64,000 bases of DNA from Candidatus Gastranaerophilales bacterium HUM_1 (GTDB lineage: Bacteria > Cyanobacteriota > Vampirovibrionia > Gastranaerophilales > Gastranaerophilaceae): NCBI GenBank assembly GCA_002103105.1, contig DAAY01000004.1, forward strand, positions 27,746 through 91,745. The letters are read 5' to 3'. Below are positions 9,777 through 58,765 of the stretch, in pieces. Within the stretch, counting starts at the first letter, position 1; each line of letters opens with the position of its first letter. A model generated the notes under the pieces. It was not told the DNA's origin. It was given only the letters and a program-made list of their open reading frames with translations, and ran no database searches. The position numbers were made by a program, and so were the translations under genes.

Positions 9777-9809
9777 CCCTCTCCCTTAATCCCTCTCCAT
9801 CGGAGAGGG
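9777..9809 (+). repeat. solo REP-like element CCCTCTCCC-TTAAT-CCCTCTCC-ATC-GGAGAGGG
   Basis: 8-bp GC-rich stem with a 3-nt loop, preceded by a direct copy of the 5' arm. Near-identical elements occur at 48046-48077 and 56215-56248. Confidence 0.7.
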
Positions 9810-9824
9810 AAATTTCTTTTAAAC

Positions 9825-18132: not shown

Positions 18133-18990
18133 TTATGCTTTTGCATCAACTTTAGTTTCTGGTTTTACTCCTTGTGCTTCTTGAGCCTTTTGAGCCTTTT
18201 TATCATGGAAGTAATTACCAATCCAGTTAGCTGGTTTCATTACAAGTACAGGAACTAGATATCTATAAACCATACCGAATACGAACAATGATTTCATTGC
18301 TGACAAACCATCTATCTGATGAGTGATTTTTATATCTTTTAATACATCAAGATTAAAATCTCGAATATTAGAGTATGATTGGTTACCTAATTCTTGAAGA
18401 AGTTTTTGACCTTCTTTTGAATCTGGTTTAACATGTTTATACCATTCTTTCATCATGATTTTCAAATTCTTAGGATCCCAATCTCCAAAAATTTCAGTTT
18501 TCTTTGATGCTGGATTATTATTTAGATAATTTGCAACAGCTCTTGTGGTTGCATTATTACATTTCTTTGCTAACCAGCCATCTAGACCATAAGCACATCC
18601 AGTAGAAATTAACCAAGTTAACCCATCGTTAATCGCTAAAGTCTTGCGTTTTTCTGGGTCCAATTTATCATTTTCTAATGTTTTTACAACATACATACCA
18701 GAAATTAAAGTTGAACCTAACGCTGACATATGTGCCGTCATATTATTCCATTTTGGGCTATTTGTATGGTCAACAATAAACTTTGCAACTTTACTTTTAT
18801 AAAATCTTTTGTAGTAATTATTTGCAAGCCATTCAGTAAATTTACCGTACAAGCCTTCTGAAGCTTTTTCAGTTGCGGCAGTAGCCACGCTTGCTACACC
18901 TGTAAATTTTGGTTGAGCAACTGTTCTTTGGTTTGTTACATAAGCTCTTTTAGGAGTATTGTTATAATTTTGAATTGAACTAATTTGCAT
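18133..18990 (-). CDS. hypothetical membrane protein (paralogue-like partner of 18990-19778)
   Basis: N-terminus MQISSIQNY...KFTGV, hydrophobic segments, Lys-rich tail. TAATG stop/start overlap with the upstream gene. Confidence 0.55.
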   Translation of the reverse strand: MQISSIQNYNNTPKRAYVTNQRTVAQPKFTGVASVATAATEKASEGLYGKFTEWLANNYYKRFYKSKVAKFIVDHTNSPKWNNMTAHMSALGSTLISGMYVVKTLENDKLDPEKRKTLAINDGLTWLISTGCAYGLDGWLAKKCNNATTRAVANYLNNNPASKKTEIFGDWDPKNLKIMMKEWYKHVKPDSKEGQKLLQELGNQSYSNIRDFNLDVLKDIKITHQIDGLSAMKSLFVFGMVYRYLVPVLVMKPANWIGNYFHDKKAQKAQEAQGVKPETKVDAKA

Positions 18991-19778
18991 TATTCTTTTC
19001 CTCCTTGAACTTCTTTAAATACAGGGCTATTTACCAAGTTTTTAGAATAATCATTCGTTGGTTGCTGTGTTTGTTGTTGAACAGGAGCAGAGTCCTTTTT
19101 CTTTCCTTTTTCCATATGGAAAACATATTTCAAAATTGGAGGGATTAAAGCAATTGTTAACATTGCTTTTGGAATACCTAATACGATTGAATCCATTGCA
19201 AATTTTGCAATATCACTTAACTTTTTATATGCCTTTGATTTTTCAAGACGTCTTTTACCTATTGATTCAACACCAAATAGCTTTTCTAAGCCTTTTAGAT
19301 ATTTTTCTGGATTGCTACTAATTTTTTTATACGCAGAACCAAATGGAGCCATCACAATTGAAGCAACAATAAATCCGATAACAGCGGATGATATTGCGTG
19401 AGATGCAGCGTATATACCATCTTCTCTATCTTTCTTACCCGTTGTTGCTAAATTTGTTGCAGGTCTTAAAACACCTGCGGCAACAAGAGAAACTAAACCC
19501 GCCCCTATCGGACCTTGAGTTCTAAATATTTCACGTAACTTTTCAAATTTCTTTGAACCAGAAATTTTATCCCAAGTACTTTTGCCTAAGTTTTCGAAAA
19601 CATCAGCGGCAGCCCCGTTTTTCCCTCCGGTAAAGCTGCCGCTATAATATCCTCTATTCACATTTTTTTTGTCACACACGTCCGCACTCTTATTCTCTGC
19701 TCCGTTCTCCAGCCCGTACTTTGGCTTATGCTTGAGCATGACACCTGCGGAATAATTTCTAATTGAGTCTATATTCAT
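18990..19778 (-). CDS. hypothetical membrane protein
   Basis: Start moved to MNIDSIRNY (ATG 19778, AAGGTG RBS). SFTGG motif, three hydrophobic segments, Gln/Lys-rich tail. Confidence 0.55.
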   Translation of the reverse strand: MNIDSIRNYSAGVMLKHKPKYGLENGAENKSADVCDKKNVNRGYYSGSFTGGKNGAAADVFENLGKSTWDKISGSKKFEKLREIFRTQGPIGAGLVSLVAAGVLRPATNLATTGKKDREDGIYAASHAISSAVIGFIVASIVMAPFGSAYKKISSNPEKYLKGLEKLFGVESIGKRRLEKSKAYKKLSDIAKFAMDSIVLGIPKAMLTIALIPPILKYVFHMEKGKKKDSAPVQQQTQQPTNDYSKNLVNSPVFKEVQGGKE

Positions 19779-48045: not shown

Positions 48046-48077
48046 CCCCTCTCCCTAACCCTCTCCCTCGGAGAGGG
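48046..48077 (+). repeat. solo REP-like element CCCCTCTCCC-TAA-CCCTCTCC-CTC-GGAGAGGG
   Basis: Same architecture as 9777-9809 and 56215-56248. Confidence 0.7.
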
Positions 48078-48310
48078 AAATAAATTCAACACTTACTTAA
48101 CAAAAACGAAGTATATCTAGCTTAATGCGTACTATTTAAACATCCAATTACCAAAGAATAAAACAGAATTTTAAAAATTATTACAAGTTTTAAAATACTT
48201 TTGAATGAAAAATACCATACTTTAGTATGAATTTTTTAAATTTAGACTAAAGTTATTAAAATTTATGCCGTAAATATAAATAAGAAGGCATGTATCAAAA
48301 AGGAAAAATT

Positions 48311-55177: not shown

Positions 55178-55725
55178 CCTCTCCTTGAGGAGATAGCTAT
55201 CTTTTCCTTCTCTCTTTGGGAAGAAAGAGTGGAATTTCATCATTGTTCATTCCTCCCCGAGGGGGAGGCTAGGAGAGGGGTTGAACAGAACAAGGAACAC
55301 ATTGAAGAATTAAATACTCAATGGACCACCTCACCCTTCCCTCTCCTCAAGGAGAGGGATATTTGTTCCTTCTCTCTTTGAAAGAAAGAGTGGAATTTCA
55401 TCATTGTTCATTCCTCTCCGTGGGAGAGAACTATTTATTCCTTCTCCCTTGGGAGAAGGTTAGGATGAGGGGTTATTAAACAGAACAAGGAACACATTGA
55501 AGAATCAAATACTCAATGGACCACCTCACCCTTCCCTCTCCTCAAGGAGAGGGCTATTTGTTTCTTCACCCGAGAAAAAGTATCAACCCAAAATACAAAT
55601 ACGTTATTCTGAGCAAAGCGAAAAACCCCAAGCCTAACGTGCTCAACAAAACCCTTCATTCAAACCGTCCGCCTTAGGATAATTATTTCCCCCTCTCCTT
55701 GAGGAGAGGGGTAGGGGTGAGGTGG
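55178..55725. repeat. mosaic hairpin-module array R1 (REP/BIME-like)
   Basis: Two units of about 160-195 bp, then a 205-bp segment bounded by inverted module-A copies (55521-55553 and 55691-55725). Modules are A (CCACCTCACCC..CCCTCTCC-TCAA-GGAGAGGG), B, C and D as defined in the findings. Confidence 0.85.
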
Positions 55726-55750
55726 AAGCTCTTACGCATTTTACACTAAC

Positions 55751-55795
55751 CTACTTATCCCAAAAAACTTCTTGCAACTGCAAATAAACACCCAT
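55751..55795 (-). pseudogene. 3'-terminal fragment of a DUF559 endonuclease gene
   Basis: The minus strand reads MGVYLQLQEVFWDK-TAG, compared with GVYLHLQEVFGDK-TAG at the end of the intact gene (57997-58341). The same 25-bp spacer and inverted module A lie downstream, and homology ends at about 55795. Confidence 0.6.
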
Positions 55796-56134
55796 CAAAA
55801 TCACCCAAAAGAATTAAATATATTAACAAAAATTAAGCAAAATAAAGAAAAACCAAAATTTATTTACAAATAGTTACAATCCCTTAAACACTCGTCACAC
55901 AATACATTCAGCCTTATCAAAACGAACAATCTAATCCAAAAGAATTAATTTTTTAAAATTAATGTTATCTCACTAGTAAATTTGGGTTTAATAAAATTGT
56001 AAAGCGATGAGGATTACTTACATTTTGAGAATTCGAGAAGTTATAAATACTGAATAGGATATTAAAAGTTTGGGATACAATTCAAAATACTGAAGAGTAT
56101 CCCGTTGCGGTTTTCAAATGTCGTTTGGGACATA

Positions 56135-56440
56135 AAAGCAACCCCTCTAAAAATCCAAGCAAACACGTCATTCTGAACAAAGCAAAGCATCTCAAGCTTA
56201 GGTCCAGAGGCCAACCCCTCTCCCTAGCCCTCTCCCCATCGGAGAGGGAACAAGAGGTAAAGCTAATCAAACCTCAATCTCTCACTGAACTCAGAAAAAC
56301 AATTCCTTCTCCTTGGGGACACCAGCTGAACCGACGAAACGAAGTGAGTCGAGTGAAACTGCGTACCGTATGGCTGAAGGTTAAGATGAGGGGATAACCC
56401 AAACACAACTCCTCTCCGAGGGAGAGGTTGGGAGAGGGGA
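56135..56440. repeat. mosaic hairpin-module array R2 (more diverged)
   Basis: Contains a diverged D unit (CACGTCATTCTGAACAAAGCAAAGCATCTCAAGCTTAGG), the 33-nt element at 56215-56248, GAAGGTTAAGATGAGGGG, and a B-like CTCCTCTCCGAGGGAGAGGTTGGGAGAGGGG at 56409-56439. Confidence 0.65.
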
Positions 56441-56602: not shown

Positions 56603-57379
56603 ATGACAAAAAGATTCGGTTTTACTTTGGCAGAAGTTTTGATCACATTAGGTATCATTGGTGTAGTTGCTGCCATGACTATCCCAACATTGATTGCTAA
56701 TACTAACTCAGCAAAATTTAGATCACAATTTAAGAAAACATTATCAACATTGAACCAAGCAGGTTTGATGGCTCAAGCACAATACGATTTTGACTATGCT
56801 GGTGCTGATACAGCTTGTAAAGAAGCAACAGGTGGTACTGAAAACCCAGAAGATATGATGTCATTCTGTTCATTATTGAACGGTACATTGACTGGTCACA
56901 CTTATGTTGGTAAACCATCAAAACTAAAAAGAGCTAACTCTGGAGCTACTAGTGCTGACAAAGCAACAACTTACTCTATCAACAAGGCTACGACTGGTTT
57001 CACATATACTTTAGCTGCTGGTTCTCATGATGAAATGATTGCTTACCAATTAGCAGATGGTTCAATCGTCGCATTCCCAGCAACAGCTACTGGTTGTACT
57101 CTTGAATTAGGTAAACAAGTTACAGCTAAAACATTAGGAGAGACTCCATTGAATGGATGTATTGGTTTCATCGACGTAAACGGTACAACATTACCTAACA
57201 AAGAAGTTACTTGTGGTACTGCTGCAACTTCTGGTATAGCATCAACAAAAGTTGAAACACCTTGTACTGTTAAAAACGATGCTAAACACATGACAGACGT
57301 ATTCCCAGTAGTATTCCACGATGCAACAGTAGAACCAGCATCAGATGCTGCTAAATATGTATTAACATCAGCTAAATAG
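56603..57379 (+). CDS. prepilin-type N-terminal cleavage/methylation domain protein, candidate major type IV pilin
   Basis: MTKRFG|FTLAEVLITLGIIGVVAAMTIPTLI (Gly -1, Phe +1, Glu +5). Cys pairs in the C-terminal half. Codon choice (GGT, GCT, ACT, GTT) and the strong promoter and terminator suggest high expression. Confidence 0.8.
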   Translation: MTKRFGFTLAEVLITLGIIGVVAAMTIPTLIANTNSAKFRSQFKKTLSTLNQAGLMAQAQYDFDYAGADTACKEATGGTENPEDMMSFCSLLNGTLTGHTYVGKPSKLKRANSGATSADKATTYSINKATTGFTYTLAAGSHDEMIAYQLADGSIVAFPATATGCTLELGKQVTAKTLGETPLNGCIGFIDVNGTTLPNKEVTCGTAATSGIASTKVETPCTVKNDAKHMTDVFPVVFHDATVEPASDAAKYVLTSAK

Positions 57380-57494: not shown

Positions 57495-57971
57495 TTCCTC
57501 CCCTAGGGGGAGGCTAGGAGAGGGGTTGATTTTATAAATATACTCATCTCAAATTTTTATCATTCCAAACAAATCCAACTTGTTTTATATTTAATTTTAT
57601 TCTACTCATGACCTCTATTCAGAATAACCCTCTCCCTCCCCCTCTCCCTTGGAGAGGGGTTGAACAGAACAAGAAATATGTTGAAGAATTAAATACTCAA
57701 TGGTCCACCTCACCCTTCCCTCTCCTCAAGGAGAGGGATATTGCTTCTTCTCCCTTTGAAAGATGTCATTTCATCATTGTTCCTTCCTCTCCGAGGGAGA
57801 GGGGATATTTGTTTATTCACCTGAAAAAGAAGTATCAACCCAAAATGCAAATACGTTATTCTGAGCGAAGCAAAAAAAACCAAGCCTAACGTGCTCAACA
57901 AAACCCTCCATTCGAACCTTCAGCCTTGAGATTTTCCCTCTCCTTGAGGAGAGGGGGTAGGGGTGAGGTGG
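57495..57971. repeat. mosaic hairpin-module array R3, forming the 3' flank of the DUF559 gene
   Basis: Module B at 57495-57529, CCCCTCTCC-ctt-GGAGAGGGG near 57640, C-A at 57662-57737, an extra hairpin module of about 65 bp, a D unit at about 57819-57930, and inverted A at 57936-57971. Confidence 0.85.
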
Positions 57972-57996
57972 AATCTCTTACGCATTTTACATTAAC

Positions 57997-58341
57997 CTAC
58001 TTATCCCCAAACACTTCTTGCAAATGCAAATATACACCCTCAAAATTATTATCTATTTCATTATTCCAAAACCTTATAACCCTAAATCCTTTTGATTGTA
58101 AATATTTTGTTCTTTCATTATCTAATTCTATCTCTTCTGGTTCGTTATGCTGGCCTCCATCAATCTCTATGATTACTTTGTATTCTAGACACACAAAATC
58201 AACAATATAATCTCCAATATTATATTGCCTTTTAAATTTTAACCCTTGAAAGTTTCTATTTCTCAATAAAGACCAGAGTTTTAACTCTTGTTTTGTTTGG
58301 TTTTGGCGTAATTTTTGAATAAGGAACTTATATTTATTCAT
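57997..58341 (-). CDS. DUF559 endonuclease-domain protein (Vsr / PD-(D/E)xK-like fold)
   Basis: QELKLWSLLRNRNFQGLKFKRQYNIGDYIVDFVCLEYKVIIEIDGGQHNEPEEIELDNERTKYLQSKGFRVIRFWNNEI is the DUF559 pattern. Start set to ATG 58341 (the track start 58347 is a TTG). TAG stop at 57997-57999. Confidence 0.8.
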   Translation of the reverse strand: MNKYKFLIQKLRQNQTKQELKLWSLLRNRNFQGLKFKRQYNIGDYIVDFVCLEYKVIIEIDGGQHNEPEEIELDNERTKYLQSKGFRVIRFWNNEIDNNFEGVYLHLQEVFGDK

Positions 58342-58388
58342 AGCCAAATTTTAACATAAAGAAACTTAAATTCTTTGCGTTTAATTAT

Positions 58389-58765
58389 CCACCTCACCTA
58401 ACCTCTCCTCAAGGAGAGGGATATTGCGTATTCTCTCTTTGGAAAGTGCCATCTCTTCTTTGTACCTTATTCTCCTTTGGGAAAGAACTATTTATACCTT
58501 CTCCCGAGGGAGAAGGTTAGGATGAGGGGTTGAATAGAACAAGGAGTACGTTGAAGAATTAAATACCCAATGGTACACCTCACCCTTCCCTCTCCTCAAG
58601 GAGAGGGATATTGCGTATTCTCTCTTTGGAAAGTGTCATCTCTCCTTTGTACCTTGTTCTCCTTTTGGAAAGTGTCATCTCTCCTTTGTACCTTGTTCTC
58701 CTTTTGGAAAGAACTATTTATACCTTCTCCCGAGGGAGAGGTTAGGTGAGGGATATTTATTTCTT
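58389..58765. repeat. mosaic hairpin-module array R4, forming the 5' flank of the DUF559 gene
   Basis: Module A at 58389-58420 and 58576-58607, module C at 58532-58573, CTTCTCCCGAGGGAGAAGGTTAGGATGAGGGG at about 58498, and a 39-bp tandem duplication GGAAAGTGTCATCTCTCCTTTGTACCTTGTTCTCCTTTT at about 58628-58705. Confidence 0.85.

Follow-up and report, generated by a model that had tools for sequence, protein, structure and literature searches.

A DUF559 nuclease gene framed by inverted BoxC/TM-type triplex motifs in a human-gut Gastranaerophilales genome

Two described systems stand close to the locus reported here. In the REP/REPIN-RAYT system (e.g. Bertels and Rainey 2011, PMC3116915), a single-copy, vertically inherited nuclease/transposase-like gene is flanked by inverted short hairpin repeats, further copies of the repeat, mostly paired as inverted doublets, are scattered through many intergenic regions, and gene lineages have their own cognate variants. 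The second is the BoxC repeat, first noticed in E. coli and also named the potential intrastrand triplex (PIT) or 'TM' motif (Bergler 1992; Hoyne and Maher 2000; Holder et al. 2015, PMC4666352). BoxC/PIT/TM repeats were described as early as 1992, and hundreds of bacterial genomes contain them with strikingly conserved sequence; their origin, their spread and their protein partner are a long-standing question. Here we describe a locus in a 64-kb stretch of DNA from Candidatus Gastranaerophilales bacterium HUM_1 (64,000 nucleotides of contig DAAY01000004.1, hereafter the window), at which a small gene of the DUF559 family is enclosed by two inverted copies of a BoxC/PIT/TM-type motif. DUF559, to which E. 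coli YcjD belongs, is among the most widespread uncharacterised nuclease families.

Both the repeat class and the protein family are known; what is new is the oriented link between them, of which we found no report in the open-access literature searched. The best explanation of the cassette is that it is the gene-carrying member of a family whose far commoner gene-less members are single BoxC/TM modules and inverted doublets. The comparative evidence further suggests that the nuclease acts on these modules, in a REPIN/RAYT-like or homing-like partnership, a reading to which we give a probability of about 0.55. The oriented, phylum-spanning link merges two questions into one testable hypothesis, namely that YcjD/DUF559 binds or cuts BoxC, and puts DUF559 forward as a candidate enzyme partner for repeats that have gone 30 years without one.

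Anatomy and identity of the cassette

Read in the sense of the gene, the layout is a triplex-motif arm, a predicted extended -10 promoter of the cassette's own, the DUF559 gene, and a second triplex-motif arm in inverted orientation (Table 1). The initial annotation had described a 345-bp gene framed by inverted hairpin-bearing repeats, and its coordinates, its sequences and the distances of 25 and 47 nt were all confirmed. Each arm consists of a pyrimidine arm, a loop of 3-4 nt, the complementary purine arm, a spacer of 2-4 nt and a G-rich block that mirrors the purine arm but may have T in place of A (GGAGAGGG-nnn-GGGTGAGG). On the gene sense strand the upstream arm reads CCCTCTCC-TTGA-GGAGAGG / TTA / GGTGAGGTGG, in the order pyrimidine arm, loop, purine arm, spacer and mirror-image G block. 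The downstream arm reads CCCTCTCC-TTGA-GGAGAGGGG / GTA / GGGGTGAGGTGG and appears on the gene sense strand as the C block followed by the hairpin. The near-complete reverse complementarity claimed for the two arms holds without mismatch over the 19-nt hairpin and the 10-nt GGTGAGGTGG block, and a linker of 3-7 nt is the sole difference. The CCTACC-linker variant of the arm is found only beside the 3' end of DUF559 sequences, at 57936-57971 and 55691-55726.

Triplex motifs were defined by a pyrimidine (Y) arm, a purine (R) arm and a third block antiparallel to R that forms G.G-C, A.A-T or T.A-T triads, with stems of 6-15 and loops of 1-6, and the detector built on this definition accepts a hairpin plus mirror block with at most one incompatible triad. 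All 7 of 7 triads were compatible in the upstream arm and 9 of 9 in the downstream arm. The detector found 17 modules in the window as compared with 0 in 20 shuffles; the window modules are intergenic, multi-copy and present in both orientations. In the DUF559 flanks of other genomes, the third block fitted a mirror rather than a direct repeat in 50 versus 15 cases.

The initial annotation had treated the repeats as a local 'module A'. By their block structure they are instead members of the known BoxC/PIT/TM class of predicted intrastrand-triplex motifs. The BoxC element between fabI and ycjD of E. coli K-12, CCCCTCGCCCCTCTGGGGAGAGGGTTAGGGTGAGGGG, resolves into CCCCTCGCCCC-TCT-GGGGAGAGGG-TTA-GGGTGAGGGG and has a core near-identical to that of the window arm, and an 81-nt synthetic consensus doublet was found at a median of 35 places per genome in 5426 E. 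coli genomes. The single strand TMECO forms a triplex in vitro, as judged by circular dichroism and nuclear magnetic resonance (PMC4666352). Shared with the published elements are the block architecture (published spacer 1-4 nt), the strictly intergenic and multi-copy occurrence, the frequent inverted ('palindromic') pairs and the tie to variation between strains. Unlike published BoxC/TM, for which no associated gene is described and DUF559 is unmentioned, the modules here frame a nuclease gene in fixed orientation and, in this low-GC genome, are embedded in larger mosaic units of about 145-190 nt. The extra mirror-image block (triplex or G-rich) also sets them apart from REP.

A known RNA family for the repeats was considered and rejected. 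All seven copies of module A matched Whalefall-1 (Rfam RF01762), the one in the upstream arm included, with 18-25 bits (best 25.0), below the gathering score of 37, and the second stem-loop of that family is missing. The Whalefall-1 consensus has a CUCUCC-UUGG-GGAGAG hairpin, an inserted 24-nt hairpin and then AGGGUGAGG, so that its hairpin and block are as in module A, which lacks the second hairpin. Whalefall-1 was published as a non-coding RNA restricted to whale-fall metagenomes and unconnected with DUF559 or BoxC (Weinberg et al. 2010, PMC2864571). In two alphaproteobacterial loci (L066, L079) and on a viral contig (L354), we observed that the spacer between purine arm and G block holds an extra GC-rich hairpin, e.g. 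GGCCGCCAAAGGCGGCC; such insertions are found in alphaproteobacterial and in some viral module flanks. This layout equals that of Whalefall-1, which suggests that Whalefall-1 may be one branch of the BoxC/TM family. A search of 20 related loci against Rfam returned no family at gathering score, save two tRNA genes in L034. At that locus, a DUF559 cassette (468-809) with both arms lies between the two tRNA genes (93-173 and 1000-1081).

The protein is predicted, from family and structure-relative matches, to be a Vsr-fold nuclease. It matched Pfam DUF559 (PF04480) with E=3e-39 and 133.7 bits (cut-off 20.6) over profile positions 6-105 of 109; the profiles of Vsr and MTES_1575 matched more weakly and no other profile did, in line with the initial annotation of a small PD-(D/E)xK/Vsr-like nuclease without a recombinase fold. 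The closest solved structure is 3HRL (E=1.3e-22). D48, E59, D61 and H65 are invariant between the paralogues described below, and the conserved acidic/His core D...ExDG..H is present. The score against NCBIfam PRK09767 (107 bits) stayed below the equivalog cut-off of 218, and the window protein is therefore not a YcjD equivalog. Phage homing-endonuclease families gave weak matches, and DUF559 has been placed in the same cluster (cluster 58) as Vsr and the group I intron homing endonuclease I-Bth0305I (PMC3424549). Membership in a defence system was considered and rejected, a PADLOC search having returned marginal matches only. Vsr, I-Bth0305I (an EDxHD homing endonuclease), YcjD and 3HRL thus share superfamily and fold with the window protein; unlike Vsr, it has no adjacent cytosine methyltransferase, and unlike I-Bth0305I, its gene lies outside any intron or intein. 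The NCBI records DAA82617.1 and HAS93461.1 label exactly this protein 'DNA (cytosine-5-)-methyltransferase', a domain that is absent from it. The label is a mis-annotation, which probably arose through association with Vsr and which the link between DUF559 and BoxC, if true, would correct.

The gene is both old and functional. A sister species carries an 86%-identical orthologue at the same site, where the upstream arm is conserved, as is the C block downstream. Against this orthologue the ratio of nonsynonymous to synonymous divergence (dN/dS) is 0.13-0.14 with dS of 0.60, as compared with a dS of 0.47 for the neighbouring gene. Synteny, a dS like that of the neighbour and a low dN/dS together indicate an old, vertically inherited resident under purifying selection, and a recent transposition of the window gene was rejected on the grounds of this orthologue and its dS.

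The exact protein and its neighbours were found on hundreds of human-gut metagenome contigs, deposited as Candidatus Gastranaerophilales bacterium HUM_1 or Cyanobacteria bacterium UBA10660. In ten strains encoding the identical DUF559 protein, both arms stand at exactly equal distances from start and stop, whereas outside the arms extra repeat units vary in number, giving upstream intergenic lengths of 178-688 nt and downstream lengths of 341-1019 nt. This constancy bears on the possibility that abundant repeats simply came to lie in opposite orientation around an unrelated small gene. Module A has seven copies in the window, within two neighbouring intergenic regions and in the order + + - + - (gene) + +; with seven copies of mixed orientation, inverted nearest neighbours are unsurprising and would be expected by chance about 40% of the time, so that chance might account for the window taken alone. 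It is because arm distances are constant across strains, and because the same oriented arrangement surrounds DUF559 genes in unrelated lineages, that we read more than chance into the arrangement.

We also considered that the arms might be cis-regulatory elements of the gene, acting through mRNA 5'-3' pairing, through a C block that masks the ribosome-binding site, or through a transcript-stabilising or insulating hairpin; their abundance elsewhere would then have nothing to do with this role. A Shine-Dalgarno-like G block lies 5-9 nt before the predicted start in three loci of the candidate phyla radiation (L065, L073, L084), the downstream arm falls within the 3' untranslated region, and Rfam classes the related Whalefall-1 motif as RNA. 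The position of the predicted promoter stands in the way of this explanation. The extended -10 element TGTTAAAAT (window 58348-58356, minus-strand reading) begins 15 nt before the ATG, and of 59 small DUF559 genes 27 have a TGnTAnAAT element at -15/-16. The mRNA would accordingly be leaderless or nearly so and start inside the arms, at or beside the ATG. That the upstream arm lies ahead of this start speaks against any part for it in the mRNA. Pairing of the mRNA ends is disfavoured by this fixed internal element. RNA pairing, moreover, does not account for the mirror-image third block, purine-motif triplexes do not form in RNA, and there is no gene for the thousands of solo modules and gene-less doublets to control. 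Earlier work, insofar as it is cited in PMC4666352, found PIT/BoxC elements to be without promoter or terminator activity. A terminator role was rejected, as the arms have no T-run and a simple terminator scan flagged other hairpins but neither arm. We regard cis-regulation as improbable.

Oriented framing of DUF559 genes across lineages

In order to compare the locus across lineages, we used 80 loci from one scan of species-representative genomes with both paralogues as queries, a set that is biased towards relatives of the queries. A module upstream and its reverse complement downstream of small DUF559 genes recurred in many Gastranaerophilales species, in Saccharibacteria, Doudnabacteria and Alphaproteobacteria, and in unnamed lineages. 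When the detector was run on these loci, all 38 of 38 G-to-C module pairs spaced by 338-632 nt enclosed a DUF559 gene on the strand of the G-type (upstream) module, and no other gene was enclosed by such a pair in these 80 DUF559-anchored loci. We then scored the flanks by local alignment of the upstream flank with the reverse-complemented downstream flank, taking a score of at least 30 as strong. Strong flanks were present at 28 of 59 small DUF559 genes but at only 1 of 275 control open reading frames (ORFs) in the same loci (0.4%; Mann-Whitney p=3e-17). Inverted flanks at other DUF559 loci, which the initial annotation had proposed to look for, do therefore exist. Fixed orientation and distances recur across lineages, and the flank scores together with the 38 oriented pairs refute its objection that abundant repeats fall in random orientation; a chance arrangement is hardly credible.

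In most high-scoring pairs the gap between the upstream arm and the ATG is 2-50 nt, with some reaching about 100 nt, and that between the stop and the downstream arm is 0-20 nt, with some reaching about 80 nt. The extreme is L047, where a near-perfect inverted repeat of 41 nt comes to within 2 nt of the ATG and 1 nt of the stop. Arm sequences vary by lineage (GGGAAGG..GGATGGG, GGGGAGG..GGAGGGG and others), and within a cassette they are usually complementary and keep the mirror relation. In three Melainabacteria metagenome-assembled genomes (L014, L017, L024), a 123-aa DUF559 subfamily has different, longer arms with extra hairpins and the C-rich block outermost upstream; L017 has a 59-nt inverted repeat with a score of 98. 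The arm architecture is thus not uniform across DUF559 lineages.

The converse approach, starting from the module, used an exact search of metagenome contigs for GGAGAGGGTTAGGGTGAGG, which gave at least 120 loci (0.78 Mb) from source organisms of 32-71% GC. Among the matches listed, there were 4 DUF559 genes, 4 of 4 within about 110 nt of a module, and no other complete gene was enclosed by a module pair. In L203 a G block and a C block stand 346 nt apart, and the DUF559 gene takes up exactly this space. Most modules among the matches listed were solitary or formed inverted doublets with spacers of 9-175 nt, and neighbouring module pairs were inverted in 59 and in the same orientation in 14 cases. 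Gene-carrying cassettes are a small minority of the module population, like RAYT-flanking REPs among REPs. The spacer of the doublet in L107 resembles cassette leader plus trailer stubs (score 36.5 versus 23 +/- 4 for shuffles); L107 alone shows such stubs, and the window's own gene-less spacers gave no significant resemblance (16.5 versus 16.8 for shuffles). In addition, tandem arrays of 8-10 hairpin units were observed between a C-type and a G-type module in L109 (2537-3013) and L132 (2625-2944), both from soil or other metagenomes, which indicates that arrays can grow inside a doublet.

In E. coli K-12 (L228, NC_000913.3, 1351000-1351860), the ycjD ORF runs into a degenerate module, CACCCTCTCCC-TGAA-AGAGCGAGGG. 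On its 3' side lie a decayed tandem copy of the last ~20 ycjD codons plus module and, about 150 nt further, a canonical BoxC. The ycjD orthologue of E. ruysiae (L062) keeps a fuller C-block-plus-hairpin module.

In a survey of programmed inversions, genes that had been flagged by flanking inverted repeats were enriched 14-fold for 'DUF559 domain-containing protein', a result that the survey leaves undiscussed (PMC9881135); in the literature searched, this is the sole, indirect trace of the link. The enrichment prompted us to consider an invertible switch, which was rejected, since neither paralogue showed orientation polymorphism among the 20 strains compared (see below).

Turnover between strains and the proposed partnership

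Ten further strains were picked solely because they encode an identical neighbouring DHODB-like protein. At the site of the window gene (locus 1), six of these carry the same gene (paralogue 1), one carries a different DUF559 gene (paralogue 2) and three have none, with an intergenic length down to 369 nt. Presence or absence at a fixed site between close relatives is a feature of homing endonucleases, which are selfish genes. Paralogue 2 encodes 116 aa, is 65% identical to paralogue 1, and lies in the opposite orientation at locus 1 of L092. At locus 2, 2.2 kb away, some strains have paralogue 2, while in others 13 codons from the 3' end of paralogue 1 remain, together with the same trailer and arm; gene fragments persist at both loci.

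The two paralogues have their own arms. The upstream arm of paralogue 2 is CCTCCCC-GAGG-GGGAGG-CTA-GGAGAGGGG and its downstream arm, which overlaps the stop codon, is CCCTCTCCCC-TAC-CCCTCTCCC-TTGG-AGAGGGG. The cognate sets, GGTGAGGTGG/CCACCTCACC for paralogue 1 and GGAGAGGGG/CCCTCTCCCC for paralogue 2, are also found with the orthologues of other species. The paralogue-2 units at locus 1 of L092 and locus 2 of L100 share 98% identity over 458 nt. The stretch of similarity opens just outside the upstream hairpin and closes with the final base of the downstream hairpin; its limits are the outer edges of both arms. These copies are direct evidence of an arm-to-arm unit that has come to occupy two separate intergenic positions, and they support the earlier proposal that the gene and its two inverted repeats form a discrete unit.

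Do these observations make the cassette a transposon? The initial annotation had called it transposon-like and likened it to RAYT genes framed by REPs and to IS200/IS605 ends. The terminal inverted repeats with stem-loops, the gene-less derivatives resembling miniature inverted-repeat transposable elements (MITEs) and the arm-to-arm unit common to two loci would fit a 485-bp mobile unit, of the classical cut-and-paste or IS200/IS605-like kind, with its inverted repeats as transposase sites, and the gene-carrying and internally deleted versions with the same terminal inverted repeats do resemble autonomous transposons and their MITEs. Unlike MITEs, however, the copies are mosaic rather than uniform, and neither a target-site duplication nor a transposase family is found. 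Target-site duplications at the outer repeat edges, one of the proposed checks, were seen at none of the copies examined (gene-less strains versus the window; the units of L092 and L100). The proposed search for empty sites in relatives yielded presence/absence and paralogue replacement at locus 1 but no clean empty site. HUH, DDE and serine/tyrosine recombinases are absent, the protein being a 114-aa Vsr-fold nuclease, paralogues within a genome share 58-65% identity and are not near-identical copies, and synteny has held over a dS of about 0.5-0.6. Relocation of the unit stands for the sister paralogue; the window gene is an old and syntenic resident and not a recently transposed multi-copy one. 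Likewise, the geometry parallels that of RAYT genes, whereas chemistry of the IS200/IS605 type is excluded by a fold that is not HUH Y1. We consider a classical transposon very improbable, slightly more so than cis-regulation.

Our preferred reading is a partnership between nuclease and repeat, because a predicted Vsr-fold nuclease, cognate flanking repeats, many gene-less derivatives and turnover of the recombination type come together at these loci. We propose that the DUF559 protein would recognise the modules as an inverted pair, or as a hairpin or triplex folded by a single strand, and would nick or cut beside them. Recombinational repair from another copy might then copy, delete or exchange modules, doublets or the gene-bearing unit, and the outcome would be a long-lived, mostly vertical nuclease gene that maintains a population of short repeats. 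Binding or cutting of the modules by DUF559 and their spread by recombination or gene conversion are both inferred. In an alternative casting, the protein would be a free-standing homing endonuclease whose target, the inverted doublet, is split by its own gene; the one hint that a gene-less allele may be cut at or near the insertion point is the doublet spacer of L107, with its resemblance to leader and trailer stubs. The likeness to REPIN-RAYT lies in inverted short hairpin repeats at the flanks of the gene, dispersed intergenic copies, mostly as inverted doublets, and cognate variants, and would extend to a single-copy, vertically inherited gene; the enzymes differ, for RAYT belongs to the HUH Y1 transposases and works on REP hairpins that are single-stranded and bear a conserved GTAG.

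Several findings weigh against this partnership. The window gene had settled at its present site before the sister species split off, and no target-site duplication, clean empty site or near-identical multi-copy gene was found. Both arms are present in only about half to two thirds of small DUF559 genes, and E. coli ycjD, unlike the window cassette, retains just a degenerate downstream arm, plus a nearby BoxC. Most modules lie far from DUF559, as the 4 genes among the at least 120 module-selected metagenome loci illustrate, so that action in trans would be required; and no DUF559 gene was present in 120 viral or proviral loci (1.13 Mb) that had also been chosen by GGAGAGGGTTAGGGTGAGG. The gene-less sites of L091, L097 and L094 are not clean excisions, their junctions being hybrid modules such as ordinary homologous recombination between similar repeats would leave, with no need of a dedicated nuclease. 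Finally, Holder et al. found a stable triplex neither in duplex DNA nor in vivo (PMC4666352).

Several of these points would equally be expected under the main rival, a passive association in which autonomous recombination-prone or structure-forming modules repeatedly capture, duplicate and lose an unrelated host nuclease gene. The hybrid modules at deleted sites are what repeat-repeat recombination predicts, most modules have no DUF559 nearby, and the gene is old and syntenic. In addition, the duplication of the 3' part of paralogue 1 reaches 150 nt past the arm, and TM/BoxC loci are unusually unstable between E. coli strains with no known enzyme, mobility genes never having been found near TM sites (PMC4666352). 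Such an association, however, leaves unexplained why DUF559 alone is found enclosed, why gene and arms keep one orientation in all 38 G-to-C pairs, why the arms abut start and stop at conserved short distances in distant phyla, and why the paralogue-specific arm pairs stay matched despite frequent recombination. We therefore rate it as unlikely, though well ahead of the other alternatives.

If the partnership between nuclease and modules is real, it would be a second, mechanistically different relationship between a repeat and a domesticated nuclease beside REPIN-RAYT, and it would explain a source of intergenic instability. More tentatively, and with somewhat less than an even chance in our estimate, small DUF559 proteins may be the missing trans-acting enzymes of the pan-bacterial BoxC/PIT/TM repeats, and the two together a new class of selfish or commensal elements that drives copying and turnover by break-induced recombination. 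Such a DUF559-BoxC class, which we hold equally tentatively, would be independent of but convergent with REPIN-RAYT and would extend from Proteobacteria to Melainabacteria and the candidate phyla radiation.

Other repeats and gene remnants in the window

Table 1. Coordinates of the cassette and of the neighbouring repeats and remnants, in window positions
Feature	Position	Strand	Description
Upstream arm	58389..58420	-	CCACCTCACCTAACCTCTCCTCAAGGAGAGGG; 47 nt from ATG; BoxC/TM-type triplex motif
Leader	58342..58388	-	47 nt; holds the predicted extended -10 element
DUF559 gene	57997..58341	-	345-nt ORF, 114 aa plus stop; predicted Vsr-like PD-(D/E)xK-superfamily nuclease fold; on the + strand, stop codon reads CTA (57997-57999) and ATG reads CAT (58339-58341)
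Trailer	57972..57996	-	25 nt from stop codon to downstream arm; invariant in 11 strains, as are the distances of both arms
Downstream arm	57936..57971	+	CCCTCTCCTTGAGGAGAGGGGGTAGGGGTGAGGTGG; same motif, opposite strand; 25 nt past stop
Gene-less mosaic array	58421..58757	.	Outside upstream arm; unit number varies between strains
Triplex modules in array	58497-58527, 58578-58607, 58724-58751	.	Found by the triplex-module detector
39-nt tandem duplication	58618-58711	.	Unit TTGGAAAGTGTCATCTCTCCTTTGTACCTTGTTCTCCTT, inside a repeat unit
Gene-less doublet	57495..57662	+	Paralogue-2 (type B) arm set: CCTCCCC-TAG-GGGGAGG-CTA-GGAGAGGGG, ~100 nt, CCCTCTCCC-TCC-CCCTCTCCC-TTGG-AGAGGGG
Shared block	57782..57935	.	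Common with neighbouring intergenic region 55530-55690
Truncated cassette 3' copy	55530..55801	-	2.2 kb away; 87% identical to 57782-58046

The repeats around the cassette retain traces of both paralogues. The gene-less doublet holds the paralogue-2 cassette stubs TTGATTTTAT and ATTCAGAATAA. The shared block contains the decayed remains of the 5' part of a DUF559 gene similar to paralogue 2, lying on the + strand and convergent with the resident gene, and this fragment is intact for 16 codons in L007, L008, L093 and L096. The truncated copy comprises a 13-codon DUF559 C-terminal remnant (55754-55792, GVYLQLQEVFWDK followed by a stop), the trailer, the downstream arm (55691-55726) and the adjoining block. 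Within the mosaic array, the 39-nt tandem duplication is absent from the otherwise near-identical strain L002 and is an example of a very recent change in a repeat array.

Between the two repeat-rich regions lies a gene (56603-57379) for a prepilin-type N-terminal methylation-motif protein of 258 aa. Another prepilin-type methylation-motif gene nearby is present or absent between strains (L001/L010, around 18890-19585).

The motif (G)TCATTCTGAGCGAAGC(GAAGAATCC) occurs three times in the window (55606-55619, 56170-56183 and 57858-57871), as compared with 0.13 expected. It forms a short hairpin, ATTCT...AGAAT, always lies within repeat-rich intergenic regions, and is also present at locus 1 of L091, L092 and L094; in the window it adjoins the break point of the decayed DUF559 5' fragment. 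Many spurious 'VILSEAKNL'-type ORFs in diverse phyla go back to sequences of this kind. Solitary triplex-type modules were also observed at 9778-9810 and 48051-48080, in ordinary intergenic regions far from DUF559, and each adjoins, as a separate element, an intrinsic terminator.

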